Source: a bacterium (GTDB taxonomy: Bacteria; Chlamydiota; Chlamydiia; Chlamydiales; SM23-39). Taken from it: a stretch of 56,288 nucleotides of DNA. Positions 13,384-45,025 of this stretch are shown here, one piece after another. A program made the position numbers and the translations under genes. The notes under the pieces were generated by a model that was not told the origin of the DNA, searched no databases, and saw nothing but the letters and a program-made list of their open reading frames with translations. The stretch spans positions 1 through 56,288 of the forward strand of contig JAJXYX010000043.1 in assembly GCA_021780355.1 (NCBI GenBank). The letters are read 5' to 3'. The first letter of the stretch is position 1. Each line of letters begins with the position of its first letter.

Positions 13384-13432
13384 TTGGGACTTCGTCCCAA
13401 ACCCAACTAAAGGACTTTGTCCTTTAGAATCC
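13384..13432 (+). repeat. Double-hairpin repeat unit A
   Basis: TTGGGAC-TTC-GTCCCAA ACCCAA CTAAAGGAC-TTT-GTCCTTTAG AATCC plus a T-rich tail. Confidence 0.85.
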
Positions 13433-13450
13433 TATTTTTTTTGTATTAGG

Positions 13451-13494
13451 AAAAAGCCTTGATGGTTAATGCGTCAATCATCAGGGCTTTTTTT
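13451..13494. terminator. Bidirectional intrinsic terminator
   Basis: AAAAAGCCTTGATGG...TCATCAGGGCTTTTTTT. Confidence 0.7.
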
Positions 13495-13558
13495 ATTTGA
13501 TGAATTTTTGTTTATAAAGAAAACCCTTTTTGTATAGTGAAAGAAAAAGGGTGAATAG

Positions 13559-14485
13559 ATGGGACATACTCATTCGTCTTCGTGTTCTCATGGCCATGGC
13601 CCTGCGGTGCATGGCAAGGCGCTTTACATTTCTATTTCGATTGCGGCTTTATTTATGATTGTCGAGGTGGTGGGCGGTTGGATAGCCAACTCGTTAGCTC
13701 TGATCAGCGACGCTCTTCATTTGTTTACAGATATTGGCGCTTTGACGCTGAGTTTAGTTGTTTTGAAGATTGCCCATTGGCCCAAAACGCCCGGCATGAG
13801 CTACGGCTATTATCGAGCGGAAGTTTTAGGGGCGCTTGCGAGTTCGCTTTCTTTGTGGGCTCTTTGCGGAGTATTGGTGTATGAGGCGATTATGCGTCTT
13901 ATTGTACCAGAACCTGTGCAGGGACCTTTAGTGTTTGTGATTGCTTCGGTCGGTCTTGCGGCGAATTTGATGATGATGCGCGTTTTACATCCCGTGCAGG
14001 GGCACAATATCAACATGCGCGCGGCTTATTTGCATGTTCTTGGAGATGTATTGGGCAGTGTTGGGGTGATTTTGGGGGGCGCTCTTTTATGGTGGACCAA
14101 TTGGTACCCCATTGACCCGATCATTACGCTTCTTTTTAGTTTGGGTATTCTTTATGGCTCAGGGAAGATTATTAAAGAATCCATTGTGATTTTAATGGAA
14201 GCGACTCCAACGGGTGTGAATCCTCTGAAAATTGAGCAAGACCTTTTGGCGATTGAAGGGATTGAAGAGATTCATGATCTTCATGTATGGGCTGTTTCTA
14301 ATAAGAAAATCGCTTTAAGTGCGCATCTTGTCGGTAGAAATGGTCATAAAATTCTGAGTCAAGCCCATCAAATGATCGAATCGAAGTATGGAATTTCGCA
14401 TATGACCCTTCAGTTTGAAGATCCGGAGCATTTTGAGCCTAAATACTGTTACGACTGTTCTCCTGGGAGTGCTCATAGAGAATAG
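13559..14485 (+). CDS. Cation diffusion facilitator (ZitB/CzcD-like Zn/Co/Cd efflux)
   Basis: His-rich N-terminus, SLALISDALHLFTD, NMRAAYLHVLGD, IHDLHVW. Confidence 0.93.
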   Translation: MGHTHSSSCSHGHGPAVHGKALYISISIAALFMIVEVVGGWIANSLALISDALHLFTDIGALTLSLVVLKIAHWPKTPGMSYGYYRAEVLGALASSLSLWALCGVLVYEAIMRLIVPEPVQGPLVFVIASVGLAANLMMMRVLHPVQGHNINMRAAYLHVLGDVLGSVGVILGGALLWWTNWYPIDPIITLLFSLGILYGSGKIIKESIVILMEATPTGVNPLKIEQDLLAIEGIEEIHDLHVWAVSNKKIALSAHLVGRNGHKILSQAHQMIESKYGISHMTLQFEDPEHFEPKYCYDCSPGSAHRE

Positions 14486-14547
14486 CCCTTGCGTTTTTGA
14501 CCTTCTTTAAGTAAGCTGCATGCCTTCAAAAAAATACCGAGGCATCT

Positions 14548-14979
14548 ATGCATGTTTTGTTACCATCCATCCTGTTGGCGTCTTCAAGGGGAGGTCAACT
14601 ATTAAACCTGAGCGGCGAAATCATTGATGAACTCGTGGATATGGATTTGCCAGACACAACTTGTTCCATAAGAGATATTCCGAACCTTCGATTGACTCGC
14701 TGCAAATTCTTTAAGGTGGAAAGCAAAGGAGAGCTTTTCTTGAATGAATGCCGAGTTGAGAAAGTCGTCGCAGTAAAAAAAGCTACTTTAATCAATCAGT
14801 GTGAGATCGGAGAGGTCATGACAGATGAGGATGGGGAAGTATGGATAGAAAAATGTAAAAACGTCAAAGCGGTAGCTACGGGCCGCGTCATACTTGATCA
14901 AGTTTTTCCCTCGATGAAATTGCATGTAAAAATATTGATTCGTACGGCTGATTTTTCGGTATATACCGAAGGAAGCTGA
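14548..14979 (+). CDS. Hypothetical protein; last codons and stop supplied by a MITE
   Basis: 143 aa with GAGG RBS; the terminal YTEGS-stop lies inside the palindromic element starting at 14962. Confidence 0.55.
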   Translation: MHVLLPSILLASSRGGQLLNLSGEIIDELVDMDLPDTTCSIRDIPNLRLTRCKFFKVESKGELFLNECRVEKVVAVKKATLINQCEIGEVMTDEDGEVWIEKCKNVKAVATGRVILDQVFPSMKLHVKILIRTADFSVYTEGS

Positions 14980-15130
14980 AGAATCGGCTTACAGGCGGGT
15001 TCAAAGCGCCAAAAATCGATCGTCATAAAGGGGGGTTGTATTGCCTCGATACTACCCCCCTTTATGACAATCGATTTTTGGTAGCTTTCAATTCCGCCTG
15101 TAAGCCGATTCTTCAGCTTTCTTCGGTATA
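14962..15130 (+). mobile_element. Palindromic MITE, copy 1
   Basis: 169 bp imperfect palindrome TATACCGAAGGAAGCTGAAGAATCGGCT...AGCCGATTCTTCAGCTTTCTTCGGTATA, bounded by TA. Confidence 0.85.
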
Positions 15131-15136
15131 AACATA

Positions 15137-15183
15137 GGATTCCAAAGATTGAGTCCTTTGGCGGGGTATGGGGCAGCGTCCCA
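15137..15183 (-). repeat. Double-hairpin repeat unit B (degenerate)
   Basis: GGATTCCAAAG...CCTTTGG CGGGGTATGGGGC-AGC-GTCCCA. Confidence 0.75.
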
Positions 15184-15253
15184 TCTCATTCTGAGTGCAT
15201 CTATAGATTTAAAAAATTCGAATGATGTATCATGGGTCCCCGTGAGAGGTTTT

Positions 15254-16030
15254 ATGGGTGGTCAGTTTGTCTTTTTAGGGACGGGGGCGTCGGCGGGGGT
15301 TCCTTTGATAGGGTGCCAGTGCGCTGTGTGCCAGTCTTCTTTGCCCTATAACAATCGTTTGCGCTCAGCAGGGTGGCTTCGGGTAGGAGAAAAGTCTTTT
15401 TTAATTGATGTGGGGCCCGATTTTCGACAGCAGGCGCTGAAGCATGGGATTGAGCGGGTCGATGGGCTGCTGTTGACTCATACGCATTTTGACCATATTG
15501 CGGGGATCGACGACTTGAGGATCTATTCTGTTAGGCAAGAAAGGGCTGTTCCTTGCTTGCTGTCTCAGGAGAGTTATGATGAGCTGGCTACGCGCTATCA
15601 TTATTTTTTTAAGAAAGGAAAGAATCTGACGGCCCAGTTTTCTTATCAGGTGATGAATGATGAGGCGGGCGTCTTGGGATTTGAGGGGCTTTCGGTGAAG
15701 TATTTTCATTATAAGCAAGGCGATATGAAAGTGACGGGCTATCGGATTGGCGATTTTGCGTATCTGACAGATATCCGGGATTATGGCGAAACGATTTTTT
15801 CTTTTTTACAAGGGGTGAATTGTTTGGTGCTGAGCGCGCTTCGAGAAGAGCCGTCCCATTTGCATTTATCGCTGGATGAAGCGGTCGCCTTTGCTAGGAA
15901 AGCGGGAGCTCGGAAAACGAGACTGACCCACCTTTCCCATTTTTTGGATCATGAAGAGATCAACCAAAAACTGCCTCCTGATGTACAGGCAGGATACGAT
16001 GGGTTGACGATGGAATTTGAGGTGCTGTAG
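15254..16030 (+). CDS. MBL-fold hydrolase, PhnP-like
   Basis: FLGTGASAGVP..GCQCAVC, THTHFDH, YLTD, THLSH and GYDG. ATG 15254 follows GAGG; the ORF-track start at 15149 lies in a repeat. Confidence 0.9.
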   Translation: MGGQFVFLGTGASAGVPLIGCQCAVCQSSLPYNNRLRSAGWLRVGEKSFLIDVGPDFRQQALKHGIERVDGLLLTHTHFDHIAGIDDLRIYSVRQERAVPCLLSQESYDELATRYHYFFKKGKNLTAQFSYQVMNDEAGVLGFEGLSVKYFHYKQGDMKVTGYRIGDFAYLTDIRDYGETIFSFLQGVNCLVLSALREEPSHLHLSLDEAVAFARKAGARKTRLTHLSHFLDHEEINQKLPPDVQAGYDGLTMEFEVL

Positions 16031-17340: not shown

Positions 17341-18233
17341 CGCTTCCTCCCTGTCGAGCTTCTTTAGATGTGCTGGACGACGAACTCACTTCGACGTTAT
17401 TTGCAGATTATTACTATTCTACCTATGCAGCCTCGAGCGCATCTACTTTATTTCGGTTCCATGAAGAGCCTTTCCCAATAGATGGAGATCCTTCCTTATC
17501 TCTCCCAGAGCTTCCCTCGTTAAAAGAACCCAAATTATCCGCCCGGATTTTTTCCAAAATCAAGTCTCTTCCAGCTCAAGACCGTCCTCGAGAGCGTTTA
17601 GCGCAGGTGGGTCCTGAAGCCCTTTCCACCATCGAGCTCCTCGCTATTTTACTAGGCAATGGGACTAAAAACTGCTCTGTTTTACAGCTAGCCGCTCAAC
17701 TCATGTCCCATTTTGGCACTCTTCACGCCCTTTCCGAGGCGAGCGTGCAAGAGCTCTCTTCTCTCAAAGGCATCGGCTTTGCCAAAGCCGTGCAGCTTAA
17801 AGCCGCCTTCAGCCTTCATGCAAGACTCCCCATCGGCCCCATCGATAAAATCGTGTTCGATAAAGCCAGCAAAATCTACGATCTCATCGGCTCTGAGCTA
17901 AAAAAAGAAAAAGTTGAAGTGCTTATGGTCATTCTTCTTGATGCCAGAAAGCGCTTTATCCATCGAGAAATCGCCGCAAAAGGCATTTTAAATCAGATTT
18001 TAATCCACCCGCGCGAAATCTTTCATTTAGCTATCAAGCATCGCGCTCACAGCATCGTCATCGCCCACAACCACCCCTCAGGAGATGTAGTCCCTTCCCA
18101 GCAAGATCTCCACATGACGCAAATTCTAAGAAAATCAGGCGAAATTTTAGGCATCAAACTGATAGATCATCTGATTGTAGCAGGAGAAGAGTACATTTCT
18201 CTCGCTGAGAAAAATCTTCTTCATGATGTTTAG
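17337..18233 (+). CDS. radC: RadC-family JAB/MPN protein with N-terminal extension
   Basis: DRPRERL, ELLAILL, HhH KGIGFAKA, HPREIF, HNHPSG and DHLIV. Confidence 0.93.
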   Translation: MTLPPCRASLDVLDDELTSTLFADYYYSTYAASSASTLFRFHEEPFPIDGDPSLSLPELPSLKEPKLSARIFSKIKSLPAQDRPRERLAQVGPEALSTIELLAILLGNGTKNCSVLQLAAQLMSHFGTLHALSEASVQELSSLKGIGFAKAVQLKAAFSLHARLPIGPIDKIVFDKASKIYDLIGSELKKEKVEVLMVILLDARKRFIHREIAAKGILNQILIHPREIFHLAIKHRAHSIVIAHNHPSGDVVPSQQDLHMTQILRKSGEILGIKLIDHLIVAGEEYISLAEKNLLHDV

Positions 18234-18234
18234 T

Positions 18235-18367
18235 TGGGGCTCCGCCCCAAACCCCGCTAAAAGGCTATCGCCCTTTAGAATCCCTTTTGTTTTTTTTTAT
18301 TTTCAAAAAAATCAAAAAGGATTCTAAAGGGCGATAGCCCTTTAGCGGGGTTTGGGGCGGAGCCCCA
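18235..18367. repeat. Inverted pair of double-hairpin units C (18235-18283) and D (18319-18367)
   Basis: 48/49 identical inverted copies separated by a T/A tract, between convergent radC and pdhB. Confidence 0.92.
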
Positions 18368-18385
18368 TCCTGAGGAATTCACAAA

Positions 18386-19372
18386 TTATCGAACAGGGAG
18401 AAGTTCTTGTAGGGCGGCGAGGATTCTTTCTTTGTTGGGAAGCGTTTCTTTTTCGAGGATTTTGGAGTATGGCATGGGAGTTTCTCGTTGGCAGACGCGG
18501 ACGAGGGGGGCGTCGAGATCATCGAAGCAGTGTTCGATGATTTGAAAGCCCACTTCGGCGGAGATGCCGGCGAAGATGTGACCTTCTTCGACGATGGCGC
18601 AGCGGTGCGTTTTGCGAACCGAGGCGGCAATGGTTGCGATGTCGAGGGGTTTGATGGTCCTGAGGTCGATGATCTCTACTTGGACGCCTTGCTTGGCGAG
18701 CTCGTCTGCGGCTTCGCGGCAGAACTTGAGCATGCGCGAGTAGGAAATGAGGGTGATGTGCTTGCCTTCGCGGATGACTTTGGCTTTGCCGATGGGGACG
18801 AGGTACTCTTCCGTGGGGATCTCCATCTTGTCGCCGTAGTCGAGCTCATTTTCTAAGAAGATGACGGGGTTGTTGGAACGGATGGAGGCTTTCAGAAGAC
18901 CTTTCGCATCGTAGGCGTTGCTTGGGGCTATGACGATGAAACCGGGGAGGTGGCCGTAAATGGCCTCTACACAGTGGGAGTGCTGGCAAGAGACTTGAGC
19001 GGCAGCTCCATTTGGGCCTCGGAAGACGATAGGGACTTTAAAACGACCGTTGGACATGTAGTAGGCTTTGCAGGCGTTCGAGATGAGCTGATCCGCGGCG
19101 ACGAAGGAAAAGTTCCAGCTCATGAACTCTACAATCGGGCGCAGACCTGTTTGAGCAGCTCCGATGGCGATGCCGGCAAAACCGTTTTCGGCAATCGGCG
19201 TGTCGATGACGCGCTCGGGACCCCATTTGTCCAGCATGCCTTTGGTGACTTTGTAGGCGCCATTATATTCCGCTACTTCTTCGCCAAGGATGAACACGGT
19301 AGAATCGCGGGTCATCTCCTCATCGATCGCTTGCCTGAGGGCTTCTCGAATTTCAACGATTTGCGTTCCCAT
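18386..19372 (-). CDS. pdhB: Pyruvate dehydrogenase E1 beta
   Basis: GEEVAEYNGAYKVT, DTPIAE, PIVFRGPNG and DLRTIKPLD; start placed at MGTQIV. Confidence 0.95.
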   Translation of the reverse strand: MGTQIVEIREALRQAIDEEMTRDSTVFILGEEVAEYNGAYKVTKGMLDKWGPERVIDTPIAENGFAGIAIGAAQTGLRPIVEFMSWNFSFVAADQLISNACKAYYMSNGRFKVPIVFRGPNGAAAQVSCQHSHCVEAIYGHLPGFIVIAPSNAYDAKGLLKASIRSNNPVIFLENELDYGDKMEIPTEEYLVPIGKAKVIREGKHITLISYSRMLKFCREAADELAKQGVQVEIIDLRTIKPLDIATIAASVRKTHRCAIVEEGHIFAGISAEVGFQIIEHCFDDLDAPLVRVCQRETPMPYSKILEKETLPNKERILAALQELLPVR

Positions 19373-20402: not shown

Positions 20403-20464
20403 GTCTTTGCGTTCTTAGTCTAAACCGGCGTATAAACAGTTAAGTAATAATTTTGCAAGAGATC

Positions 20465-20617: not shown

Positions 20618-20782
20618 GATACAGCCTCGGCTTATAAAATTACTCTTCTCAGGATACCCAAATGGGGAGAAAAAAGAAATGGGTTTATTCCAGTGAGGAA
20701 TAGGCGGGCTGGGAGGAGATAAAATGAGAATTGCTTTTAATCGAAAAATTCTGTTTCATAGGGGGTTTTACATTGGGTGACT

Positions 20783-22312: not shown

Positions 22313-22335
22313 AAACTGTCGTTGAAATTCTCCAA

Positions 22336-22502
22336 TATACCGTTCGTAACTCAAGAATCGGCTATTGGATGAGATTGAAAGCTGCCAAAAATTGATCGCC
22401 GCAAAGTGGGCTAGTATGAGGCAATACAACCCACTTTGCGGCGATCGATTTTTGGCGCTTTGAACTCGTCCAATAGCCGATTCTTGAGTCACGAACGGTA
22501 TA
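22336..22502 (-). mobile_element. Palindromic MITE, copy 2
   Basis: 167 bp TATACCGTTCGTAACTCAAGAATCGGCT...AGCCGATTCTTGAGTCACGAACGGTATA. It has the same internal loop and bulges as copy 1, in the opposite orientation. Confidence 0.88.
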
Positions 22503-22525
22503 CAAAGAAATTCAACGACCGCCTC

Positions 22526-22956: not shown

Positions 22957-23679
22957 ATGAATGCGATAGAAATAAAAAAAGAATTAGGTTTAAGAGCTGC
23001 TCAATTGATTCAATCCGGGATGATCGTCGGTCTCGGCACTGGTTCTACTGCTGAGTGTTTTATTCATAGCCTGCTTGAGCGGGTCCAAAAAGAAAAACTA
23101 ACCATTCAAGCCGTTGCCAGTTCAGAGCGTTCGGCAGAATTAGCGCGAGCAGGCGGCGTTTCCGTCTTAGATCTCAATGAGGCCTCTCATGTCGACATCA
23201 CCGTTGATGGAGCCGATGAAATCGATCCCGAAAAGCGTCTGATTAAAGGAGCTGGCGGAGCTCTGCTTCGAGAAAAAATCCTAGCCTCCTCCAGTCGCAG
23301 CATGCTCGTCATCGCCGATGAAACCAAGTTAGTTCCTCACCTCGGAAAAACAAAACTCCCCCTAGAAATTCTCCCCTACGGCGCCGCCGCCACCCGCCGC
23401 CATATCGAAGCCCTCGGACACAAAGCTTCCTGGAGATTAAGCCCCTTCAGCCCCCTCCGCCCCACCTTTCATCTACCCCAGCAATCAGAAAATCTCTTCC
23501 TCACAGACAACAATAATCTCATCCTCGATCTCACTTTCAGTCACCCTCTCCAAAACCCCGAAGAGCTTCATCACGAACTCACCCAAATCCCCGGAGTACT
23601 CGAAACCGGCTTCTTTTTCCACCTAGCCAAAACAATCCTCATCGGCCGTCTTAATGGCAAAGTCGATCAAATTTCTTAG
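22957..23679 (+). CDS. rpiA: Ribose-5-phosphate isomerase A
   Basis: GLGTGST, DGADE and KGAGGALLREK; start after GGAGG. Confidence 0.96.
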   Translation: MNAIEIKKELGLRAAQLIQSGMIVGLGTGSTAECFIHSLLERVQKEKLTIQAVASSERSAELARAGGVSVLDLNEASHVDITVDGADEIDPEKRLIKGAGGALLREKILASSSRSMLVIADETKLVPHLGKTKLPLEILPYGAAATRRHIEALGHKASWRLSPFSPLRPTFHLPQQSENLFLTDNNNLILDLTFSHPLQNPEELHHELTQIPGVLETGFFFHLAKTILIGRLNGKVDQIS

Positions 23680-23687
23680 CGCATAGA

Positions 23688-23835
23688 TGGGGCTTCGCCC
23701 CAAACCCCACCAAAGGACTATCGTCCTTTGGAAACCTATTTACTTTACGAATCATCAATCGCTGCGATTGATGATTCAAAAACAAATAGGAGTCCAGAGG
23801 ACGTAGTCCTTTGGCGGAGTGTGGGGCGGAGCCCC
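23688..23835. repeat. Inverted pair of double-hairpin units E (23688-23736) and F (23789-23835) around a central 29 bp palindrome
   Basis: Same unit as A-D. The centre is GAATCATCAATCGC-T-GCGATTGATGATTC (23749-23777). Lies between convergent rpiA and pepF. Confidence 0.9.
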
Positions 23836-23843
23836 GCTATCGA

Positions 23844-25643
23844 TTAGCTCAGACATTCTTCGAGTTCGTCGATGAGTTTTTGGAAATAATTGAGAGCTGA
23901 TTCGACGGGTTTGGGGCTTGTCATGTCGACGCCTGCGATCTGTAGGAGATCGAGGGGGTAGCGGCTGCCTCCGGCGCTGAGGAATTGGAGGTATTTTGAT
24001 CGAGCTTCTTGGGATTGGGTGGCTTGATTGAAGAGCTCGAGGGCTGCGCTGAGGCCGGTTGCGTATTGATAAACGTAGAAGTCGTAGTAGAAGTGGGGGA
24101 TTCGGGCCCATTCGAAGGCGAGTTCGGGGTCGGCGGCGAAATGGGGGCCGTAGTATTCTTGGTTGAGTTGGAGATAAGTTTTGTTGAGAAGAGAGGGGGT
24201 GAGGGGGACGCCTTCTTCGGCCCAGCGGTGGAGTTGCCATTCGAACTCCGCGAAGAGCGTTTGACGGAAGATGGTGCCTCGAATGCCTTCGATTTGGTAG
24301 TTGAGGAGAACGGCTTTTTCTTGCTTGGTTTTTGCGTGGGAGAGGAGATGGCGCAAGAGAAGCTGCTCGTTGAAAGTGGAGGCGACTTCTGCTACGAAGA
24401 TCGGGTATTGGGAGTTGATGTAGGATTGGTGGGTGCGGCTGTAGTAGCTGTGCATGCTGTGGCCAGCTTCGTGGGCGAGAGTGAGGACGTCATTGAGCGT
24501 GCCGTGGTAGTTCATGAGGATGTAGGGCATGCTATCGTAGCATCCGCTGGAATAGGCCCCGGAGCGCTTGCGGGCGTTTTCGTAGACATCGACCCAGCGA
24601 TCTGTGGTGAGGCCTTTTTGTAAGATCTCTTGGTATTCGGAGCCTAAGAGAGAGACGGATTCGATGACAGCATGGCAGGCGTCGGGATATGCCATGTTCA
24701 TGTTGGTTTCTGAGACGAGAGGAACGTAGAGATCGTAGGCGTGAATTTGATCGAGCTTGAGGATTTTTTTTCGTAGGTCAAGATACTTGTGCATGAGAGG
24801 GAGGCCTGTTTTCACAGTTTGGATGAGCTGTGAATAGACCTTGGTGTCGATTTTATGGCTGAAGAGGGCGGAATCTAGACAGCTGGGAAAATTTCTGGCC
24901 CTTGCTGTGAAGAGATGGCTTTCGACTAGACCTTGAAGAAGCTCGCAGATTGTGTTGGCGTGATGTTCATAGCTTTGATGCAGATGGATGAAAGCGGTTT
25001 TGCGAAATTTTCGGTCGGGAGATCTGACGTACATGAGATAAGAGCCGTTGGAGAGGGGGTGTTCTTTTCCTTTCTCGTCGAGGGCGGGTTGGAAGGTGAG
25101 GTCCGCATTATTCAGAGCCCCGAACGCTTTATAGAAAGTGTCTAGAGCTTTTGAGCTAAGGGCCATAATTTTTTCCTGCTCAGGTGGAAGCGTGTGGGCT
25201 TTTCTCCGGTTTACTTTTTCTAAATAGAATTGAAATGGTTTGAGAGAGGGGGTTTGGAGCAATGTTTGATATTGCTCCTCGCTGAGGGATAGCAGCTCTG
25301 GCTCGATCCAGGAGCTTTCCAACTGAAAATGGTGCATGAGCTGCGAGATCAGGCCAAAATAATGTTTATGTACGTCATTGCCTACGTCCTCATCTAATTT
25401 AAGATGGGCGTAGGTATGTAGTTTCGATAGCTCTCTGTCTAGGTTAAATAATTTATTGAGAAGCTCTGTGAGCTGGGAGGGGTTTGCGAGATGGTTTTTG
25501 TAGGCGGCAAGCTCTGGCCAGCGAAGCTCTTCTTCTTTATTTTGAATAGCTTGCAGATCTTTTTCCCACTCGGAAAACGAGGGGTATAAAGCCGAGACAT
25601 TCCACTGGTCTTGCTCGGGGATTTCGGTTCTGGATTGGGTCAT
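23844..25643 (-). CDS. pepF: Oligoendopeptidase F (M3B)
   Basis: KRSGAYSSG, TLAHEAGHSMH, FVAEVAS and WARIPHFY. Confidence 0.96.
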   Translation of the reverse strand: MTQSRTEIPEQDQWNVSALYPSFSEWEKDLQAIQNKEEELRWPELAAYKNHLANPSQLTELLNKLFNLDRELSKLHTYAHLKLDEDVGNDVHKHYFGLISQLMHHFQLESSWIEPELLSLSEEQYQTLLQTPSLKPFQFYLEKVNRRKAHTLPPEQEKIMALSSKALDTFYKAFGALNNADLTFQPALDEKGKEHPLSNGSYLMYVRSPDRKFRKTAFIHLHQSYEHHANTICELLQGLVESHLFTARARNFPSCLDSALFSHKIDTKVYSQLIQTVKTGLPLMHKYLDLRKKILKLDQIHAYDLYVPLVSETNMNMAYPDACHAVIESVSLLGSEYQEILQKGLTTDRWVDVYENARKRSGAYSSGCYDSMPYILMNYHGTLNDVLTLAHEAGHSMHSYYSRTHQSYINSQYPIFVAEVASTFNEQLLLRHLLSHAKTKQEKAVLLNYQIEGIRGTIFRQTLFAEFEWQLHRWAEEGVPLTPSLLNKTYLQLNQEYYGPHFAADPELAFEWARIPHFYYDFYVYQYATGLSAALELFNQATQSQEARSKYLQFLSAGGSRYPLDLLQIAGVDMTSPKPVESALNYFQKLIDELEECLS

Positions 25644-27816: not shown

Positions 27817-27853
27817 AAAAACCCCTTGGAGGCAACTTCAAGGGGTTTTTTTT
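27817..27853 (+). terminator. groESL intrinsic terminator
   Basis: AAAAACCCCTTGGAG-GCAA-CTTCAAGGGGTTTTTTTT. Confidence 0.9.
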
Positions 27854-27874: not shown

Positions 27875-27928
27875 GGGATTCCAAAGGGCGTCAGCCCTTT
27901 GGTAGGATCTTAAGGACGAAGTCCTTAA
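27875..27928 (-). repeat. Double-hairpin repeat unit G (variant)
   Basis: GGGATT CCAAAGGGC-GTCA-GCCCTTTGG TAGGATC TTAAGGAC-GAA-GTCCTTAA. Confidence 0.8.
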
Positions 27929-27964
27929 AAACTTTCAGCTGGAAACTCTTTGTAAGCTAATTCT

Positions 27965-30100
27965 TTAGTCCTGAGAAGCTGACAGCCCCATATCTTCAAA
28001 AAATGCATCCTGCGTTGGTTCGCGGCCTAAGAAATCTTGCAAGAGATCATTAGGATCGGCGCTTCCGCCTTTGCCTAGGACTTTATCGACAAACTGTTTG
28101 CCGATGCCAGCGTCTAGGAGGCCTACTTGTTTTACTTGGTTAAATAGATCGAGGGCGAATACTTTTGACCACATATATCCATAGTACTTGGCTCCATAGC
28201 CAATTAAATGGCCAAAGGATGCCTGCATATGCGCGTTGGGATTATATGCAATTGTCGAGCAGTATTTTTCGAATAACTCTTTTTGGATGGCTTGCGTATC
28301 TTTTTCGGCGCCTGGTTTGAAGTATTCAAGCGAAATCAAGCTTAAGTACGCTTGGCGTCTTAAAAACGCTCCGCTGTCGAATTTTTTTAGGGAAATCATT
28401 GTGTCGATCAGGCTATCGGAAAGAGGTTCTCCAGTTAGATAATGGGAGCTTACCTGTTTGAGCATGTCTTTGTCCCACATCCATTCTTCGAACATTTGCG
28501 AGGGCATTTCTACGAAATCGTACTTGACGGCAAAACCTGAACATGAGGCAAGCTTTGTTGTTCCTAGAACGTAGTGCATGGCGTGGCCGAATTCATGAAA
28601 AAAGGTTTCTACATCCGAGTGCTTGAAAAGAGCGGGTTTGTCAGGGGTGGCTTTGGGGAAATTGGCAATTACCATGCAAGCTGCAGGGGCGATCACTCGC
28701 TTGCCATTTTGGTCGCTATAAAGAGATGGCACCAATTCGGCGCAGCATGCATGCGAATATTTATTGGGTCGGGGATAAAGATCTAAAATGACATAACCGC
28801 GCTGTTTGCCAGTTCCTCTATCTTTAATCGAGATGCATATGACCTCTTTATCCCAAAGACCTTGGACGGGAACTCTTTCAAAATCGACGTTTAAAAACTT
28901 TTGATAGATAGCAAAGATGCCTTCTACGGTTTTATCGACTGGGAAATACTCTGCCACTTCGCGCGCATCCATGGAGAAATGTTTTTTCTTGTACGATTCT
29001 TTAATGTACTCTAGATCCCATCCAAAAAATTGACCGCGCTCATTTAATTCGACGCCTTCGGGCAAATCATTCATCAAGTCTCGATGTTCTAGCAGTTCTT
29101 TTTGACGCGCTTTGTCGATTAGCTGATAAATAAAAGCGTAGGCGCGCTCTGGTGTTTCGGCCATATTGGGATCGATATCTAGATGAGCGTAGCTTGGGAA
29201 ATGAAGAAGCTGTGCGAGCGCGTCTCGTTTGCTGATGATGGTTTTCAGCCGCTCCATGTTTTCAGGATAGGCTCTATTTTGAAATTCTGTTAATAAGAGC
29301 TTGCGGGTTTGCCCATTTTTACAGTGGCCCATCACTTCAAAATACGTTGGGTAATCAACGCCTACTTTGAGTTTGCCGTCATCGATTTTTTCTAAACGCT
29401 GCAAAAGATCATCGGAAACGCCAGCTAAATCCTCTGGGGCCACGGCGATGAATCGATTGTCTTTGGCAATGGCCGCTTGAAACTCTGTTCCCAGCTGCGA
29501 AAGTTCTTTTTTAATTTGTTTGACCTGATCGAATTGATTGCTCGGCAAATCAAACCCATTTCGTTTAAAATCCTTCATACTCTCACTGAGAAAATAGGCT
29601 TCTTCGCTCGAGAGTTTTTCTCCATTGGCGTGAGCCAAGCTTCCCTCTCTTATCATTCCCTCAAATGCGGCGTAAAGAGCTGGATTCATAAAGGCGTCGA
29701 CGGCGAAATCTTGCATTGTAAGAATCGCTTCGTGTGCAGCGTTTCGCATGGCTTCATCAGGATGGAGCATTTCGAGAACATGAATCGGATTGCAGGCAAT
29801 GGAAAATTTACGGCTCAGTTCATCGAAAGCTTTGATCGTATTGTCAAAGTTGCGCTTCTCATGAGATAGTGAAAGGAGCTCTTTAAAGTCTTTTTGTGCA
29901 ATCGCAAGACTGGCTTTACACCTTTCGGCGATCTCATTAGGACTTTTGGGAAAAAGGTTGATGACTTGTTGAATGGAACTGACATTGTTTTGCAGCATTT
30001 CTTCATACCTTTCTGTATTCAAAGCGTAGGAATTTTTTAACAAGCCCACACAGCCCATTACAGATAACCCCACAATCGTTCCTATTTTGATGCCTCGCAT
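27965..30100 (-). CDS. M3A metallopeptidase (thimet oligopeptidase-like) with N-terminal signal-like segment
   Basis: DLYPRPNKYSHA, FFHEFGHAMH, DFVEMPSQ and YYGYMWS. Confidence 0.93.
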   Translation of the reverse strand: MRGIKIGTIVGLSVMGCVGLLKNSYALNTERYEEMLQNNVSSIQQVINLFPKSPNEIAERCKASLAIAQKDFKELLSLSHEKRNFDNTIKAFDELSRKFSIACNPIHVLEMLHPDEAMRNAAHEAILTMQDFAVDAFMNPALYAAFEGMIREGSLAHANGEKLSSEEAYFLSESMKDFKRNGFDLPSNQFDQVKQIKKELSQLGTEFQAAIAKDNRFIAVAPEDLAGVSDDLLQRLEKIDDGKLKVGVDYPTYFEVMGHCKNGQTRKLLLTEFQNRAYPENMERLKTIISKRDALAQLLHFPSYAHLDIDPNMAETPERAYAFIYQLIDKARQKELLEHRDLMNDLPEGVELNERGQFFGWDLEYIKESYKKKHFSMDAREVAEYFPVDKTVEGIFAIYQKFLNVDFERVPVQGLWDKEVICISIKDRGTGKQRGYVILDLYPRPNKYSHACCAELVPSLYSDQNGKRVIAPAACMVIANFPKATPDKPALFKHSDVETFFHEFGHAMHYVLGTTKLASCSGFAVKYDFVEMPSQMFEEWMWDKDMLKQVSSHYLTGEPLSDSLIDTMISLKKFDSGAFLRRQAYLSLISLEYFKPGAEKDTQAIQKELFEKYCSTIAYNPNAHMQASFGHLIGYGAKYYGYMWSKVFALDLFNQVKQVGLLDAGIGKQFVDKVLGKGGSADPNDLLQDFLGREPTQDAFFEDMGLSASQD

Positions 30101-35147: not shown

Positions 35148-35753
35148 TTATCTTACATACCATAAAAATTTTTCATGGACTCGCGAGCGGATTTTTGGGG
35201 ATTCGATTTTTTCAATCATTTTTAAAGCTTCTTTCGTTTTAAAATTTTGAGGAAGCTCTAGTTCTGGAAGGGCGCTAAAAAGATGCGAGCGGGCTGAGGA
35301 GAGATAGAAGAAGTCAAGGAGAGCCTTTTCGGCAGTGGCTATTTTGGCGATTGACCCCGGGAGAGTTTCGAACCCAAAAAAGAAGTTAGGCTGGATGTGA
35401 TGGATTGAGATATGTCCGAGAGGAGTCTTGTATTTTCTAGTTCTAGCGAGAGATACTGCATAAATGGTGGCCGGAATTTGTGAGATCATGCCATGATGAT
35501 AGAGGGCGCTATGTACCGAAATATAACTCGGTGCAGGACTCGTCAGATATTCAGGAATCTCGTAGGGATTGATGTTTTCGTGAAAAGCCCACTTGCCTCT
35601 AGCAAGCTGAATAAAAAATTTAGCCTTGCAAAGACGTCGTAGAATCTGACTTGCGTGGTCAATCGAAATATTAAGTGCAGCGGCAGCATCAGTTGTTTGA
35701 AGAACATCGATTTTAAGAGCTAGAAGTTTGGCTTTCGCTTCTAATAAATTCAT
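35148..35753 (-). CDS. AbiEi-like antitoxin / transcriptional regulator (type IV TA)
   Basis: N-terminal wHTH (L.RL......QLARGKW), PSYIS..SALYHHGMISQIP and ATAEKALLD. Confidence 0.85.
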   Translation of the reverse strand: MNLLEAKAKLLALKIDVLQTTDAAAALNISIDHASQILRRLCKAKFFIQLARGKWAFHENINPYEIPEYLTSPAPSYISVHSALYHHGMISQIPATIYAVSLARTRKYKTPLGHISIHHIQPNFFFGFETLPGSIAKIATAEKALLDFFYLSSARSHLFSALPELELPQNFKTKEALKMIEKIESPKIRSRVHEKFLWYVR

Positions 35754-36505
35754 GATTTTAATTCTTCAATCGCTAGAGCTACTTTAGTTTGCATCTCTCC
35801 CCAAATTTTTGGAGAATCGTAATATTCTTGATATTCTTCCATAAGAAATGCTACAACTTGCGCTTTAAATGATGCAAAATCAATGCTTAAAGCATTTTTA
35901 ATAGCTATATCTAATTTTTTTCGCAAATCTTCAGGAAAATTTTGAGAAACGATTCCTTGGGCGAGAAGCAAATGAAGATCAAAAACATCTCTGGCTTGAG
36001 TTTCTGTTCGATGAATCAAGGCATCGATTTTTTGTATAAAAGCAGTTTCTTGCGCATAATGATTGGCCAAAATAGGATAAAGTCGATAACGATTCGTCAG
36101 CTCAGGATCCACAGATTCAAATAAGACTCCTTCATCTAGTTTTCTCCGTGAAAATTCAATTTTGGTAGGAATAATTTGAGATGTTTTCGAAAGTTTCAGG
36201 CTCAATTTCCAGCGCTGCGTTGTTTCAGTTTGTTTTGCTTCTGAAATATTTCCTATCTCGATTTGATGCGAAGAAAGAGCCTGCAAAAAAACTGGGCTTT
36301 CGAACAGCTTGCGAGTTTTGTTTCGGAGAGTTTCTTTTGTAATTGTTTTTACGTCAATATCGAGATCTTCCGAATAACGGATACTTTTGAAGAAAAAACG
36401 CAAATTGCAGCCCCCTTTTACAGCATAGAGCGATTTCTCGAGCTTCCCGCTGAGAGCATGCAGGAAAAGAAGATGGAAAAGTTCAACTGTTTTTTGGTGT
36501 GTCAT
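35750..36505 (-). CDS. AbiEii/AbiGii-like nucleotidyltransferase toxin
   Basis: KGGCNLR, RYSEDLDID, KIEFS and K..A...R...RDVFD. Confidence 0.9.
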   Translation of the reverse strand: MTHQKTVELFHLLFLHALSGKLEKSLYAVKGGCNLRFFFKSIRYSEDLDIDVKTITKETLRNKTRKLFESPVFLQALSSHQIEIGNISEAKQTETTQRWKLSLKLSKTSQIIPTKIEFSRRKLDEGVLFESVDPELTNRYRLYPILANHYAQETAFIQKIDALIHRTETQARDVFDLHLLLAQGIVSQNFPEDLRKKLDIAIKNALSIDFASFKAQVVAFLMEEYQEYYDSPKIWGEMQTKVALAIEELKS

Positions 36506-36514
36506 ATGAACATG

Positions 36515-36690: not shown

Positions 36691-36740
36691 GGGTTTTAAG
36701 GGACGTAGTCCCTTAATGGGATTTGGGGCGAAGCCCCAAT
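36691..36740 (-). repeat. Double-hairpin repeat unit H
   Basis: GGGTT TTAAGGGAC-GTA-GTCCCTTAA TGGGAT TTGGGGC-GAA-GCCCCAA; abuts the lpxD stop. Confidence 0.85.
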
Positions 36741-37781
36741 CTATTGCGGCTGCAATTCGGCGAGTTTTTTTTCGAGTTCTTTGAGGCGGGCGATGTAGTC
36801 TTTGAGTTTACGGACATGGACTTCTTGGCGGTGGTAGTCGGCAATGGGGATGGCGGGACTGCCGCGGTATTCGCCGGCTTTAAGATACTTGCTGGCGCCG
36901 CCGCGCGTTGCGATTCGGACGTGATTGTCGAGCTCTACGTGGCCGAGGATGCCGACTTGGCCTCCTAACATGACATGCTTGCCTGTTTTGGCAGAGCCTG
37001 CAATGCCAGTTTGGGCGGCGATAGCATTATGCTCTCCGATTTCGACGTTGTGGGCGATTTGGACAAGGTTGTCGATCTTTGTCCCTTTGCGGATGATGGT
37101 GCTTTTGAAACGTGATCGGTCGATGGTGGTATTGGCTCCAATCTCTACGTCGTCTTCTAAGATCACATTGCCTAGCTGCTCTAATTTGCTGAAGTGTCCT
37201 TGCGCGTTCGGGAGATAGCCAAAACCGCAAGAGCCGATGACAGCTCCCGGTTGAAGGATGACGCGGTCGTGGATGATGCATCTTTCTCGGATGCAGCAAG
37301 AGGGGTGAATAAAACAGCCTTTGCCGATTTGCACTTCGAAACCGATGGAAACGTGGGGTCCGATTGAGGTGCTCTCTCCAATGTCTACGTTCCTGTCGAT
37401 GACGGCGTAAGGTCCAATGGAAACATTGCGACCGATGTGGGCGGTGGGGTGGATGACGGCTGTTGGATGGATGCCGGTGAATCCTGATTCACGCGATGTT
37501 GGCGCTAAAAGCAGTTCTGCAATGCGCTGAAAGGTGAGAGAAGGATTGTCTGAAACGAGATAGTTTTTTCCATCTTCTACAGGCTCTTGTACGCAGATGA
37601 TGCCGGCGACGCTTTTTTTCATAGCTTCTCTATAGCGAGGATTGGCTAGAAAAGAAACATCGCTGGAAAGAGCTTCTTCGAGGGTGTTTACCCCCGTCAC
37701 TTGGTGATCGGGATTGCCGATGAACCGCGAACCTGTTTGCTCTGCAAGTTCAGCTAATGAGAAGCTCTTTGTCGACGACAT
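36741..37781 (-). CDS. lpxD: UDP-3-O-(3-hydroxyacyl)glucosamine N-acyltransferase
   Basis: Hexapeptide repeats, [17 protein letters not shown] and [11 protein letters not shown]. Confidence 0.97.
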
Positions 37782-37785
37782 TCAA

Positions 37786-38400: not shown

Positions 38401-38419
38401 ACATCTCCTTAACAAAGGT

Positions 38420-40831: not shown

Positions 40832-40893
40832 GTCTAAACATCGTTGTTGATCCGCCTGATTATAGAAATTAGACTTTAAAAAAGCAATCCTTT

Positions 40894-41493: not shown

Positions 41494-41634
41494 AGTAAGT
41501 GCAGTGTAGGAAAATTTTCTCCTTTTTGCAAGAACCTTTCTTCTCTGTAAAGAATAATTTTTATTTGTCAAACTCTCTCTTTCTATTTAATAGGAGATTT
41601 GTGTAAAATCGACGCAATTGAAGAGCTTAAAAAG

Positions 41635-42627
41635 ATGATTAGAGTAGCTAGAATTAGAGGTACTGGGGCCTATTTGCCGGAAAGAGTCTTGACAAATCAG
41701 GACCTTGAGCAAATGGTGGACACTTCTGATGAATGGATTGTCACTCGAACCGGGATGAAAGAGCGTAGGCTAGCCGGTCCTGATGAATTTACTTCAGGAA
41801 TGGGAGCCAAAGCGGCCCAGAGGGCCATTGAAGATGCGGGGCTTGTAGCTGACGACATAGATTTTATTTTAGTGGCGACATTGACGCCGGATTACCTGTT
41901 TCCGAGTACTGCTTGTTTAATTCAGCAGCTTTTGGGCGCTAAAAAAGCTGCCAGCTTAGATATCCAAGCGGCCTGCACGGGATATTTATACGCCCTATCT
42001 TTAGCCAAATCTTTCATTGAATCGGGGGCTTACCGCCATATTTTAGTCGTGGCTGCCGAAAAGCTCTCTTCTATCACTAATTATAAGGACCGTTCCACTT
42101 GTGTTTTGTTTGGCGATGGGGCCTCCGCCTGCGTCGTTTCCTCTGAAGGAGAGGGGTTGGCCATCCAATCGGTCCGTCTCGGTTCCGATGGAGAGCAAGC
42201 TGAGCTGCTCATCCAGCCGGCTGGCGGGTGCCGTCTTCCCGCATCAGCTGAGACGGTGGCGAACGATCAGCACTTTATCCGGATGGCAGGCAACGAGGTG
42301 TTTAAGCACGCTGTTCGACGCATGGAATCGGCTTGTAAAGAATGTATTGATGCAGCTCAAATTGATGAATTGGACATTTCCTGGGTCGTTCCTCATCAAG
42401 CAAATATTCGAATTATTGACGCGATTGCCAAGCGCTTTAAGCATCTTCCCTCTGAAAGGGTGTATAAAACAGTGCAGAAATACGGCAATACTTCAGCTTC
42501 TTCCGTCGGTATTGCCTTGCACGAACTAAGAAAAGAGCAGTCTTTGCAGGAAGGGGAGAAGATTTTATTAACAGCTTTCGGCGCAGGTCTAACCTGGGGC
42601 GCGGCTTTATTGCAGGCTCAACGATGA
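41635..42627 (+). CDS. fabH: Beta-ketoacyl-ACP synthase III
   Basis: AACTG, PHQAN, GNTSASS and FGAGLTWG; start uncertain (41599 or 41635). Confidence 0.97.
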   Translation: MIRVARIRGTGAYLPERVLTNQDLEQMVDTSDEWIVTRTGMKERRLAGPDEFTSGMGAKAAQRAIEDAGLVADDIDFILVATLTPDYLFPSTACLIQQLLGAKKAASLDIQAACTGYLYALSLAKSFIESGAYRHILVVAAEKLSSITNYKDRSTCVLFGDGASACVVSSEGEGLAIQSVRLGSDGEQAELLIQPAGGCRLPASAETVANDQHFIRMAGNEVFKHAVRRMESACKECIDAAQIDELDISWVVPHQANIRIIDAIAKRFKHLPSERVYKTVQKYGNTSASSVGIALHELRKEQSLQEGEKILLTAFGAGLTWGAALLQAQR

Positions 42628-43571
42628 AAAAAATAGCGTTTTTGTTTCCTGGCCAAGGATCCCAGGCTCCTGGAATGGGGAAGGATTTTTATGAGGCGTT
42701 TTCTGTTGCTAGAGAGACGTTTCAAGAAGCAGATGATTTACTCTCGTATGGTTTAACGCAGGTCATGTTCGAGGGCCCGGAAGCTCTTTTAACGCAGACC
42801 AAGCATAGCCAGCTCGCTATCTTTGTCAACAGCGTAGCGCTTTTGAGAACACTGCAATCGCAAATGCCGCAATTAACCCCCTTTGTCTGCGCAGGTCTGA
42901 GCCTTGGAGAGTATACGGCCTTGTTTGCATCTGGTCGAATTGAGATGGCAGAGGCTTTGCGGCTTGTGCGCGTTCGAGCAGAACTGATGAACCGAGCTTG
43001 CGAAGAGGTTTCTGGAACTATGGCTGCAGTCCTTGGGATGTCAGGGTCTGCTATTGAAGAAGCTTTGCATGGACTTTCTGGTGTTTGGGTAGCCAATTAC
43101 AATTGCCCAGGACAAGTCGTGATTTCCGGGACGCAGGAAGGGGTTGAAGAGGCCTCTTCGGTTTTGAAAGCGAGCGGTGCAAAACGGGTTATTCCTCTGA
43201 CCGTGCATGGAGCTTTTCATAGCGGTCTTATGAAATCAGCTCAAGAAGGGCTGACCCCCTTTATTCAGGCGGCCTCTTTAAAAAATTCTTCCATCCCATT
43301 TGTGATGAATGTTCCTGGCGATTTTGTCGAGTCTCTCGATCTTATGCGCCAACATCTCATGAATCAAGTGACCCAGTCTGTCCGATGGGACCAAGGTATT
43401 GTCGCCATGGAATCGAAGCTAGTGGATCTTTATCTAGAGATTGGATCTGGCAAAACCTTAGCAGGCCTTAATAAAAAAATAGGGGTGAAAGCTCCTACGT
43501 TGTCTTTGGAGAAAGTCGGCGATTTAGATAGCGTGATGCAACAAATAGAAGGGGCGATATGCAGCTGTTAA
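42624..43571 (+). CDS. fabD: Malonyl-CoA:ACP transacylase
   Basis: FPGQGSQ, GLSLGEY and GAFHS. Confidence 0.97.
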   Translation: MKKIAFLFPGQGSQAPGMGKDFYEAFSVARETFQEADDLLSYGLTQVMFEGPEALLTQTKHSQLAIFVNSVALLRTLQSQMPQLTPFVCAGLSLGEYTALFASGRIEMAEALRLVRVRAELMNRACEEVSGTMAAVLGMSGSAIEEALHGLSGVWVANYNCPGQVVISGTQEGVEEASSVLKASGAKRVIPLTVHGAFHSGLMKSAQEGLTPFIQAASLKNSSIPFVMNVPGDFVESLDLMRQHLMNQVTQSVRWDQGIVAMESKLVDLYLEIGSGKTLAGLNKKIGVKAPTLSLEKVGDLDSVMQQIEGAICSC

Positions 43572-44314
43572 AGAAAAAATCGGCAATCATTACGGGCGGT
43601 ACAGCGGGGATTGGAAAAGCGATCGCGTTGCTTTATGCGCAAAACGGAGCGGATGTAGCGATTTTTGGAACAAACAGAGAGAGAGCAGAGCAAACTCTTA
43701 AGGAATTAGAAGCTCATCGAGTAGATTCTGAGCAAAAATTTTCAGCCCACTTAGTCAATGTGGCTCAGTTTAAAGAAGTCGAAGAGACGATTCAAAAAAT
43801 ATTATCCGATTGGGGAAAAGTGGACATCCTTGTCAATAACGCGGGGATTACAAGAGACAATCTTTTAATGCGTATGAACGAAGAAGATTGGGACCTTGTC
43901 TTGGATGTCAATTTAAAATCTGTGTATAACACTTGCCGAGTTCTCGCTCGGAGCATGATGAAGGCGAAAGGGGGATCGATTATCAACATTTCCTCCGTGA
44001 TTGGCTTGACAGGAAATGCGGGGCAAGTAAACTATGCAGCATCCAAATCGGGAATGATCGGGTTCACGAAGTCGCTAGCTAAAGAGCTGGCGAGCCGCAA
44101 TGTGCGGGCGAACTGCGTGGCGCCTGGTTATATAGAAACTCAAATGACCGAGGGGTTGTCCGACCAAATTAAAGGGCAAATCCTCGCAAATATCCCGCTG
44201 GGGCGTATTGGCAGTCCTCAAGATATAGCTCAAGCGGCTTTATATTTAGCTAGCGATTTATCAAGCTATGTCACAGGACAAGTGATTGCGGTTGATGGCG
44301 GGATGGTCATGTAG
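43559..44314 (+). CDS. fabG: 3-oxoacyl-ACP reductase
   Basis: TGGTAGIG, NNAGITRD and YAASK. Confidence 0.97.
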   Translation: MQLLKKKSAIITGGTAGIGKAIALLYAQNGADVAIFGTNRERAEQTLKELEAHRVDSEQKFSAHLVNVAQFKEVEETIQKILSDWGKVDILVNNAGITRDNLLMRMNEEDWDLVLDVNLKSVYNTCRVLARSMMKAKGGSIINISSVIGLTGNAGQVNYAASKSGMIGFTKSLAKELASRNVRANCVAPGYIETQMTEGLSDQIKGQILANIPLGRIGSPQDIAQAALYLASDLSSYVTGQVIAVDGGMVM

Positions 44315-44426
44315 GACCCACAATAATTGAAAAGGCCTGCTCGAAAAATAGATGGGTCCAAAATGCCAATAGCTGCGTTTTGGGCTCATGTCTTCTTTGA
44401 GCCGGCTCAATAAATAGGAATTTTTT

Positions 44427-44666
44427 ATGACAATACAACAAGAAGTCATTGATATTATCATCGAACAACTCGGTGTAGAAGCTGCAGATGTTTCTTTAGA
44501 AAAATCATTTGTAGAAGATTTGAATGCAGATTCTTTGGATTTAACTGAGCTCATCATGACCTTTGAAGAGCGTTTTGGTTTTGAGATTTCGGAAGAAGAT
44601 GCTGAAAAACTTAAAACTGTAGGCGATGTCGTCGATTACGTAGAAAAACGTAAAGTCAACGCTTAA
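44427..44666 (+). CDS. acpP: Acyl carrier protein
   Basis: DLNADSLD phosphopantetheine site. Confidence 0.97.
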
Positions 44667-44685
44667 CTGCCCAAAGCCTTCTTTT

Positions 44686-44739
44686 GCCGCATCTTTTTGA
44701 GTGATGTTTCCTCTTTTTCAAGATGCGGCTTTTCTTTTT
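44686..44739 (+). terminator. Possible terminator after acpP
   Basis: GCCGCATCTT...AAGATGCGGC followed by TTTTCTTTTT; the loop is long. Confidence 0.5.
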
Positions 44740-44748
44740 GATTTGTTT

Positions 44749-44913
44749 CATACCGTTCGTGACTTAAGAATCGGCTATTGGGCGGAAGATCGCTGCTAAA
44801 AATCGATTGTCATAAAGGGGGATTGTATTTCCTCGATACCCCCTTTATGGCAATTGATTTTTAACGGTTTTCAATCCCGCCTATAAGCCGATTCTTCACT
44901 TTTCTTAAGTATG
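44749..44913 (+). mobile_element. Palindromic MITE, copy 3 (chimeric, degenerate)
   Basis: Left arm ATACCGTTCGTGACTTAAGAATCGGCTATTGG is like copy 2; the centre and right arm CCGCCTATAAGCCGATTCTTCAC are like copy 1. Confidence 0.8.
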
Positions 44914-44976
44914 TCTTTTGTTTGTTCTGAACAGTAGGCAGGTCTCGCAGTTCATTCAAAAAAATAAAAAACCATA

Positions 44977-45025
44977 GGTTTCCAAAGGACGAAGTCCTTT
45001 GGTAGGGTGCGGGACGAAGTCCTGC
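44977..45025 (-). repeat. Double-hairpin repeat unit I
   Basis: GGTTT CCAAAGGAC-GAA-GTCCTTTGG TAGGGT GCGGGAC-GAA-GTCCTGC. Confidence 0.85.

Follow-up and report, generated by a model that had tools for sequence, protein, structure and literature searches.

Replicons that use a rolling circle or single-stranded DNA (ssDNA) start complementary-strand synthesis at single-strand initiation sites (ssi) or single-strand origins (sso), signals that are read by host enzymes (PMC5714925). DNA polymerase I (Pol I) working from the ColE1 origin leaves an asymmetric footprint of mutations, recorded with an error-prone mutant, which is strongest within 800 nt and reaches 1.3 kb; T>C, G>A, T>A, C>A and G>C are its rarer changes (PMC3167613). 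Here we describe a double-hairpin repeat of the Chlamydiales contig JAJXYX010000043.1 (assembly GCA_021780355.1), whose whole analysed stretch of 56,288 nt is called the window, and an oriented, G-rich footprint in the DNA beside its copies. Our literature search found neither this element nor such a footprint at a bacterial repeat described; older ssi/sso mapping work and most subscription papers were outside its reach.

The genome of the window is called G000 (1.96 Mb in 105 contigs, 96.7% complete; the window is its contig C82). It was compared with other Chlamydiales genomes (G001, G002, G003, G004 and so on), of which G003 and G004 are congeneric with G001 and G002. Genome-wide gene calls come from a simple open reading frame (ORF) caller. 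The DNA runs containing the sequence are mine-drainage metagenomes of one study, one of them perhaps the source, and their contigs confirm the assembly; no RNA dataset is among the runs listed as containing it. At the gathering level, Rfam recognizes only the tmRNA of the window; scans by E-value added hairpin noise and a sub-threshold match to the Clostridiales-2 motif.

A double-hairpin repeat folding on one DNA strand

All nine units that the original prediction had placed in the window were found at their places and in their orientations. A profile built from them and run on G000 and on the reversed genome sequence gave 264 matches against none, which excludes chance for the nine window units. 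Merging of overlaps leaves 261 hits, and the 237 that parse cleanly were used for the loop and stem counts. The strand given for a unit is the one bearing the GNA-type loops (GNA strand). Read 5' to 3' on this strand, a unit consists of an A-rich tail, a G-G-N-N-T lead, a 9-bp hairpin A, a G-run linker and a 5-bp hairpin B.

As proposed from the window, the loops are mostly of the C-GNA-G or C-GNNA-G type on one strand (15/18), and this bias holds genome-wide: GNA-type loops close hairpin A in 188 and hairpin B in 178 of the 237 units, whereas the other strand has them in 10 and 1. In 180/237 units loop B reads GAA or GGA, and the middle of loop A is variable. Stems on the GNA strand contain 133 G.T pairs (68 of them at one position) versus 29 A.C pairs, or 59:25 if only unique stems are counted. 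The compensated stem variants quoted before are present as well. We measured covariation on 60 units from three genomes (the nine of the window and 51 drawn at random from 103 others; 59 distinct). Here, 98.3% of the cells pair and 63 cells have changed on both sides; none of 500 shuffles, which do not control for kinship, matches either value, and slid stem partners pair in at most 62%. Template-switch correction of palindromes can also yield compensated stem changes, and therefore covariation alone is no proof of selection. The loop and wobble biases support the earlier view that the structure is kept at the level of one DNA strand. The element is an interspersed double-hairpin repeat of about 260 copies that folds on one DNA strand.

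The oriented G-rich footprint

On the GNA strand, fourfold-degenerate sites 3' of hairpin B are rich in G and poor in C. Within 0-200 nt the fractions are 0.54 and 0.09 (n=5288); at 3-5 kb they are 0.24 and 0.26, with a fitted decay of 823 nt. The first 250 nt contain 3174 G, 545 C, 1097 T and 930 A, a skew of 0.71 compared to 0.08 expected from replichore and gene direction and to about 0 at random gaps. The skew is positive in 206/220 units, and none of 5000 orientation permutations reaches the observed value. It is stronger on the B side than on the A side in 59/77 single units, and the tail side of 70 isolated singles has a short opposite skew only. Doublets and singles behave alike. The effect is seen both where the GNA strand is coding (G 0.44 versus 0.20) and where it is template (0.59 versus 0.29). 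It also occurs in both the leading (0.78 versus 0.23 expected) and the lagging orientation (0.61 versus -0.12 expected) and is independent of the chromosomal fork. A control palindrome with ATACCG ends (72 copies) shows little skew. Far leading-strand sites have G 0.29 and C 0.21, and the polarity of the footprint is that of a leading strand departing from the unit. Twofold sites and amino-acid use shift in the same direction: depending on orientation, either Val, Arg and Met are raised by 20-31% near units, or Pro and His by about 20%. In G000, 12.5% of the genome lies within 1 kb of a unit.

We subsequently compared orthologous genes over aligned codons, covering parts of the genomes only (846 kb of G002, 703 kb of G001 and 447 kb of G004). 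Where a unit is present in G000 only, G is 0.41 (31 genes) and 0.53 (43 genes) in G000; the G002 orthologues have 0.18 and 0.28, and the G002 baseline is 0.18 and 0.26. Where only G002 has the unit, its template-orientation genes have G 0.36 and C 0.12 (12 genes) and its coding-orientation genes a slight shift (7 genes), and G000 is near baseline. Orthologues in G004 are at baseline in coding orientation and slightly higher in template orientation (0.51 versus 0.45). Against G001, which is closer, the skew is seen in both genomes at sites where one of them has a unit; this would follow if many of these sites lost a unit recently. Because the unit-free orthologues of G002 stay near baseline, the footprint tracks the unit and not the gene.

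The footprint is also present in G001 and G002. Two further chlamydial families show it, and in another two it is weak or lacking. G199 has G 0.58 and C 0.05 (n=835) against 0.24/0.16, G044 has 0.66 and 0.05 against 0.29/0.18, and G051 provides one strong site with no baseline. We regard the footprint as a robust comparative result. With silent sites on one strand moved from about 25% to 54% G, this 50-base repeat is a mutational force acting locally on a bacterial chromosome. The footprint serves as a sequence-only readout, with direction and length, of a DNA transaction that starts at the repeat, and local skews of such size can mislead origin prediction as well as codon-bias and selection analyses.

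In pairs of G000 and G001, changes toward G on the GNA strand are faster near units than far from them (A>G about 1.9x, C>G 1.5-1.8x, T>G 1.3-1.7x). G>A, G>C, G>T and T>C are reduced and total divergence is not raised; triplets with G002 agree. Part of this spectrum resembles the Pol I footprint of ColE1, which has a similar length and in which T>C, G>A and G>C are likewise among the rarer changes.

Arrangement of the units and possible causes of the footprint

Neighbouring units less than 200 nt apart are tail-to-tail in 49/49 pairs, with mostly AT-rich spacers that often hold a third GNA-loop hairpin. In three fused pairs, two hairpins B share one hairpin A (G000 C3:8774, C32:8547, C74:5528), and these B-A-B palindromes suggest template switching. 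Distant neighbours tend to alternate (41/122 steps in the same orientation, 61 expected), and unit orientation shows no replichore bias (89:88). In the window, 8/9 units start 0-39 nt after a stop codon, much as had been predicted; that before unit 13386 belongs to an 85-aa ORF (13112-13369), and the exception is unit 15136, which sits in front of a gene. This placement does not extend to the genome as a rule, since hairpin B points toward a gene 3' end in only 100/179 scored units and toward a 5' end in 79. In single units it points toward a 3' end in 62/91 cases, at a median of 9 nt from the stop. Units occupy 30/263 divergent, 39/269 convergent and 66/983 tandem gaps.

The repeat is present in G001 and G002 and absent in G003 and G004. 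The scan of related genomes with a covariance model that had been suggested gave matches in 31/151 genomes of the order, scattered over many families; 13 genomes with at least 12 of at most 39 scored candidates were taken as unit-rich. These counts supersede those of an over-strict pattern that undercounts. Among other genomes, exact matches to a 40-nt unit pattern were found only in Chlamydiales assemblies, and this pattern had no match in viral contigs. Near-identical units form arrays in proviral contigs of 65-75% GC, and the family is therefore likely not confined to chlamydiae. Units also turn over. Some window units are shared with relatives, with compensated changes, and others are missing, inverted or degenerate there. 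Among 25 distinct anchors from relatives (27 scored, two duplicates dropped; seven further hits had no anchor), G000 has a unit at 13, an interrupted or variant unit at four and no trace at eight.

Relatives of the motif occur in mobile replicons. In pTX14-2 the two-hairpin architecture is found about 200 nt upstream of mobV (43.9 bits), and the MOBQ plasmid pDETAB14 has it in the interval from traD to a gene with the annotation AAA ATPase (45.3 bits). The hairpin B module occurs in viral contigs with a GRA loop in 74 cases and with the flipped loop in 14. With four queries, 12 of these 74 loci gave a match to a microvirus capsid or to a CRESS-type protein. At all five microvirus loci, and also at L063 (6/6), the module is on the capsid-coding strand, and at CRESS-type loci the orientation relative to Rep is mixed. 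In Microviridae, the coding strand is the virion strand.

For the biochemical cause of the footprint, our leading reading, which we put forward tentatively, is that the unit may be a priming or helicase-loading signal of the ssi/sso type that is read on ssDNA and has been amplified genome-wide. The AT-rich tail region would open and the GNA strand fold; host replication proteins would load at the folded unit and move 5' to 3' along this strand, whose part 3' of hairpin B would time and again be displaced or synthesized anew. From the unit, DNA would then be unwound and copied outward in short bursts, and a tail-to-tail pair would be a tiny, abortive two-way origin. A primosome-type signal would fit both the footprint and the viral strand, because DnaB loaded on a folded strand moves 5' to 3' and would displace or re-make the strand on the B side. 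The genes for PriA, DnaB, DnaG and PolA are present by motif. Were the units simple Okazaki priming sites, the effect should be confined to one replichore orientation, which the data contradict. The signal probably originated in rolling-circle or mobilizable replicons, where it would have served complementary-strand synthesis, and copies might, as a guess, spread by short single-stranded products with template switching. The widest form of this idea is possible but rather doubtful. In it, a priming signal common to rolling-circle plasmids and to the ssDNA viruses of bacteria and eukaryotes would have turned into a selfish repeat that crosses phyla and has no enzyme of its own. Such a repeat would hijack host restart proteins to fire hundreds of abortive mini-origins, spread via the resulting single strands, and rewrite codons and amino acids over an eighth of the genome.

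Several observations weigh against a priming signal. No cognate protein of the unit, as had been postulated, was identified among the candidates searched. In 42/187 unit-bearing gap directions there is no footprint, and 53/1321 unit-free ones have one, some of them with decayed or variant units. Broken units skew as strongly as intact ones, which fits a historical trace and gives no link between structure and function. G199 lacks the footprint where the GNA strand is coding (n=191), G192 has a weak one and G322 none, and beside the near-identical units of the GC-rich proviral contigs the effect is weak and confined to the coding orientation. The spectrum does not fit fully either. C>T is unchanged near units, unlike in plain ssDNA deamination, and plain cytosine deamination was rejected as the cause for this reason. 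T>G is up with no increase in T, which neither deamination nor the ColE1 Pol I pattern accounts for, and in template orientation C>A versus G>T is opposite to the latter. Moreover, the rates rest on a reversible model, and the outgroup is nearly saturated. Endonuclease V is missing in 5/5 genomes and Ung is present by motif, a combination that could let A>G persist while C>T is repaired. Since it is missing in all five, the loss of Endonuclease V does not separate unit-bearing from unit-free genomes.

The main rival, which we consider unlikely, is a nick in one strand of the folded unit, made by an HUH (RAYT-like; RAYT, repetitive extragenic palindrome-associated tyrosine transposase) or a structure-specific nuclease. 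Pol I nick translation or long-patch excision would then re-make about 1 kb and bias mutation or repair, and nicking would mobilize the units in the manner of REPINs, paired repetitive extragenic palindromic (REP) sequences. Such a nick would have the same polarity and length scale and be equally independent of the replichore. The strictly tail-to-tail doublets, which show no consistent target duplication at 45 doublets, resemble REP dimers (PMC3733652). The gain and loss of units, with eight of 25 orthologous sites lacking a trace in G000, also fits, and some Y1 transposase gene is found in 10/13 unit-rich genomes (73/150 overall). However, we found no Y1 transposase in G000, G002 or G036, and, in looking for the unit-flanked HUH/RAYT gene suggested with the original prediction, no unit beside any of 12 Y1 loci (family f1). 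The GTAG/CGTC tetranucleotide of REPs is not conserved at the unit end (9/237 units). Searches for Rep or relaxase proteins by tblastn returned helicase-like matches only, and the two GIY-YIG matches are long proteins, not small Ssn-type nucleases. A nick also leaves the position of the motif on the microvirus virion strand unexplained. The proposed REP-like or ssi-like character has divided: the oriented footprint, the plasmid oriT regions and the ssDNA viruses favour the ssi-like half, whereas a link to RAYTs found no support in G000, in G002 or at the 12 loci of family f1 and is less likely.

Other candidates for a cognate protein found no support either, DDE_Tnp_1_6 among them. An archaeo-eukaryotic primase (AEP) was found in 0/5 genomes. 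DinB is present in 5/5, including two without units. A 678-aa protein without Pfam match is encoded in an integrase-bearing island at the tmRNA (window 2175-9744, with no unit inside); it occurs in 2/151 genomes and has no link to the unit-rich ones. An exonuclease-less Pol I was dismissed because the PolA proofreading motifs are kept (by eye).

Improbably, the unit might emit outward RNA or stabilize an R-loop carrying the sequence of the GNA strand, so that the displaced strand mutates or G-rich RNA:DNA hybrids are favoured. The G-run leads and the AT-rich tail would suit R-loop initiation. Exposure of the non-template strand combined with repair of the template strand should raise A>G and lower G>A and T>C, as is observed, and the effect would again not depend on the replichore. 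But ordinary coding strands are C-rich at fourfold sites (G 0.20, C 0.28), the opposite of the footprint, and no sigma-70-like site was found on the seven units scanned.

As to terminators, a mean of 2.7 T occurs in the first 8 nt after stem A and the T run lies at a median of 7 nt from the stem, so the units are not standard terminators; in a loose scan hairpin A passes in 3/7 units, with the scan overall at chance (20 versus 19). It is thus very improbable that the units are RNA elements (terminators or 3' mRNA stabilizers) beside a skew that has another cause or attracts insertion: single units do lie close behind stop codons with a T-rich tail on the sense strand, but the wobble pairs and stable loops are on the antisense strand, divergent gaps often hold units, and the skew is missing from orthologous genes that lack a unit.

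Mobile elements at the hairpins, window features and known systems

Many contigs of G000 are broken by a near-identical palindromic MITE (miniature inverted-repeat transposable element). Its junctions begin at a hairpin foot in 50/53 cases, compared to 67/3000 random places; 43 were classed as hairpin A or B. Junction pairs that match show duplication of the entire hairpin (25 and 23 bp). The same ends are found on a 1.5-kb element coding for a 457-aa transposase that is closest to IS701, below the family cut-off; in copies of this element a hairpin has been duplicated in direct (25 bp) and in inverted (23 bp) orientation, and a truncated copy in G000 is inserted at a unit (L232 from 1259). 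Since both insert at the hairpin foot and duplicate the whole hairpin, the hairpins appear to be recognized as DNA structures in the cell. A literature search found no description of such hairpin targeting for IS701. The IS701-like element targets units, cannot copy a whole unit and was therefore rejected as their transposase. Both elements have CTATAG ends and duplicated hairpins of 13-25 bp, one of them inverted (contig ends such as L034:1-97 and L036); full copies are L218:72-1567, L214 and L229.

The control repeat with ATACCG ends is a second, longer palindromic MITE family (window 14963-15129, 22337-22503, 44750-44912). CTATAG-ended MITEs of G004 (L039, L041, L043) are built as mosaics of small hairpins, with a B module in their interior. 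In G210, six identical copies (L357-L362) of a B-only module without footprint each lie just after the stop codon of a 608-aa transposase that looks IS1634-like by eye. In G000, L075 (C23) is a broken DDE transposase whose remnant holds a B-like hairpin with skew beside it, and L076 (C8) is a recombinase-like and TnpB pair (IS607-like by eye). At orthologous sites (the G000 counterparts of L047, L048 and L058; also C99:4952-5471), the standard unit is replaced by a variant family that has a B-like hairpin on another body and a modest footprint. In G261 (L428) and G353 (L429), with one unit each, hairpin B abuts the apparent 3' end of a tmRNA or tRNA gene (by eye).

The units and footprint zones of the window are listed below. 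The genes flanking the window units are housekeeping genes. Inward-facing unit pairs of G000 enclose mostly accessory genes, with hairpin B facing core genes; examples are C14:23969-25458, C53:3994-5439, C72:12209-13528, C33:16612-17307 and window 13559-14979, with a HipA-type pair, ATPases and a methyltransferase (by eye) and a cation efflux protein (Pfam) among the products. Units 13386 and 15136 bracket 1.7 kb of accessory DNA that is not in G002. The spacer of the 18236/18318 doublet is about 0.6 kb long in G001 and 2.2 kb in G002, where it holds two tandem Ras-family GTPase genes (L031:6404-8299). On the tail side of unit 36690 lie an AbiEii-type toxin gene and a partner ORF (35148-36505), a region that differs in G001, G002 and G004.

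Units, associated hairpin and footprint zones of the window (counts are fourfold sites)
Feature	Position	Strand	Remarks
Unit, followed by a separate long hairpin with T tails	13386..13433	-	G001 lacks it at the orthologous site
Unit with damaged hairpin A, before metallo-beta-lactamase gene	15136..15182	+	Common to G001; absent in G002
Left unit of tail-to-tail doublet after radC	18236..18284	-	Orthologous units in G001/G002 with compensated stem changes
Right unit of doublet after radC	18318..18366	+	Spacer 44 nt, AT-rich
Left unit of second doublet	23689..23737	-	G001 unit here in opposite orientation
Central spacer hairpin of second doublet	23749..23777	.	GCA triloop on one strand; related hairpins in many doublets
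Right unit of second doublet	23788..23835	+	G.T pair of hairpin-A subfamily
Single unit, long-linker subtype, after groEL	27875..27925	+	Adjoins separate bidirectional terminator-like hairpin, 27817-27850
Single unit at lpxD stop codon	36690..36737	+	Doublet in G001; degenerate remnant in G002; not seen in G004
Single unit	44976..45023	+	Present in G001, absent in G002
Footprint zone	15183..15883	+	G 52, C 17
Footprint zone	17535..18235	-	G 46, C 13
Footprint zone	18367..19067	+	G 73, C 8
Footprint zone	22988..23688	-	G 67, C 7
Footprint zone	23836..25335	+	G 75, C 5 (first 700 nt); G 64, C 10 beyond
Weaker footprint zone	27926..28625	+	G 34, C 12, T 31
Footprint zone	36738..37438	+	G 61, C 8
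Footprint zone	45024..46523	+	G 78, C 11 (first 700 nt); G 58, C 15 beyond

Among described systems, several share single features with the unit. The best Rfam match is the Clostridiales-2 RNA motif (RF02937; 18.2 bits, gathering threshold 58.6), whose A-rich lead, G-run and hairpin align on the GNA strand, but the second half is unaligned and the match is sub-threshold. The letters of hairpin B were found in one paper only, on a GC-rich non-coding palindrome of torque teno mini virus (an anellovirus; PMC3819664). Its 13-nt hairpin-B palindrome occurs twice in an ssDNA virus genome, whereas no function is assigned to it there and neither hairpin A nor the tail is reported. With the footprint described, the widespread and so far unexplained G-run-plus-hairpin motif of plasmids and ssDNA viruses can be tested in E. 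coli. Ssn nucleases with their NTS/SRM repeats provide a folded ssDNA repeat that is read by a protein and present in hundreds of copies (PMC11893778), but G000 has no small GIY-YIG gene and the unit no CGTC-type tag. A MITE of a DDE transposase was rejected, given the lack of a consistent duplication and of any transposase enclosed by units.

REP sequences, REPINs and bacterial interspersed mosaic elements (BIMEs), with their RAYTs, are likewise extragenic, of high copy number, close to stop codons and arranged as dimers of one orientation with structured spacers. DNA is inserted between the partners, and insertion sequences target the repeat (PMC3733652). They differ from the element described here, which has two hairpins per unit, lacks the tag, has no linked Y1 transposase among the loci covered, and is common in divergent gaps, not mostly in convergent or co-directional ones. 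A kilobase mutational footprint was not found described for REPs in our literature search.

The signals for complementary-strand synthesis, namely phiX174-type primosome assembly sites, ssiA of ColE1 and the sso of pT181, are hairpin signals on one strand (PMC5714925, PMC3167613). The unit shares with them the orientation-specific structure, and its architecture recurs near transfer and rolling-circle origins and, in microviruses, on the strand that becomes single-stranded; host machinery alone would suffice to read it. In contrast, the unit has hundreds of chromosomal copies in tail-to-tail pairs, and priming by it is a prediction. Taken together, the element fails the tested features of REP/RAYT tag and placement, of a MITE, of a terminator and of the Clostridiales-2 motif, and it would act like an ssi or sso signal that has spread like a REP.

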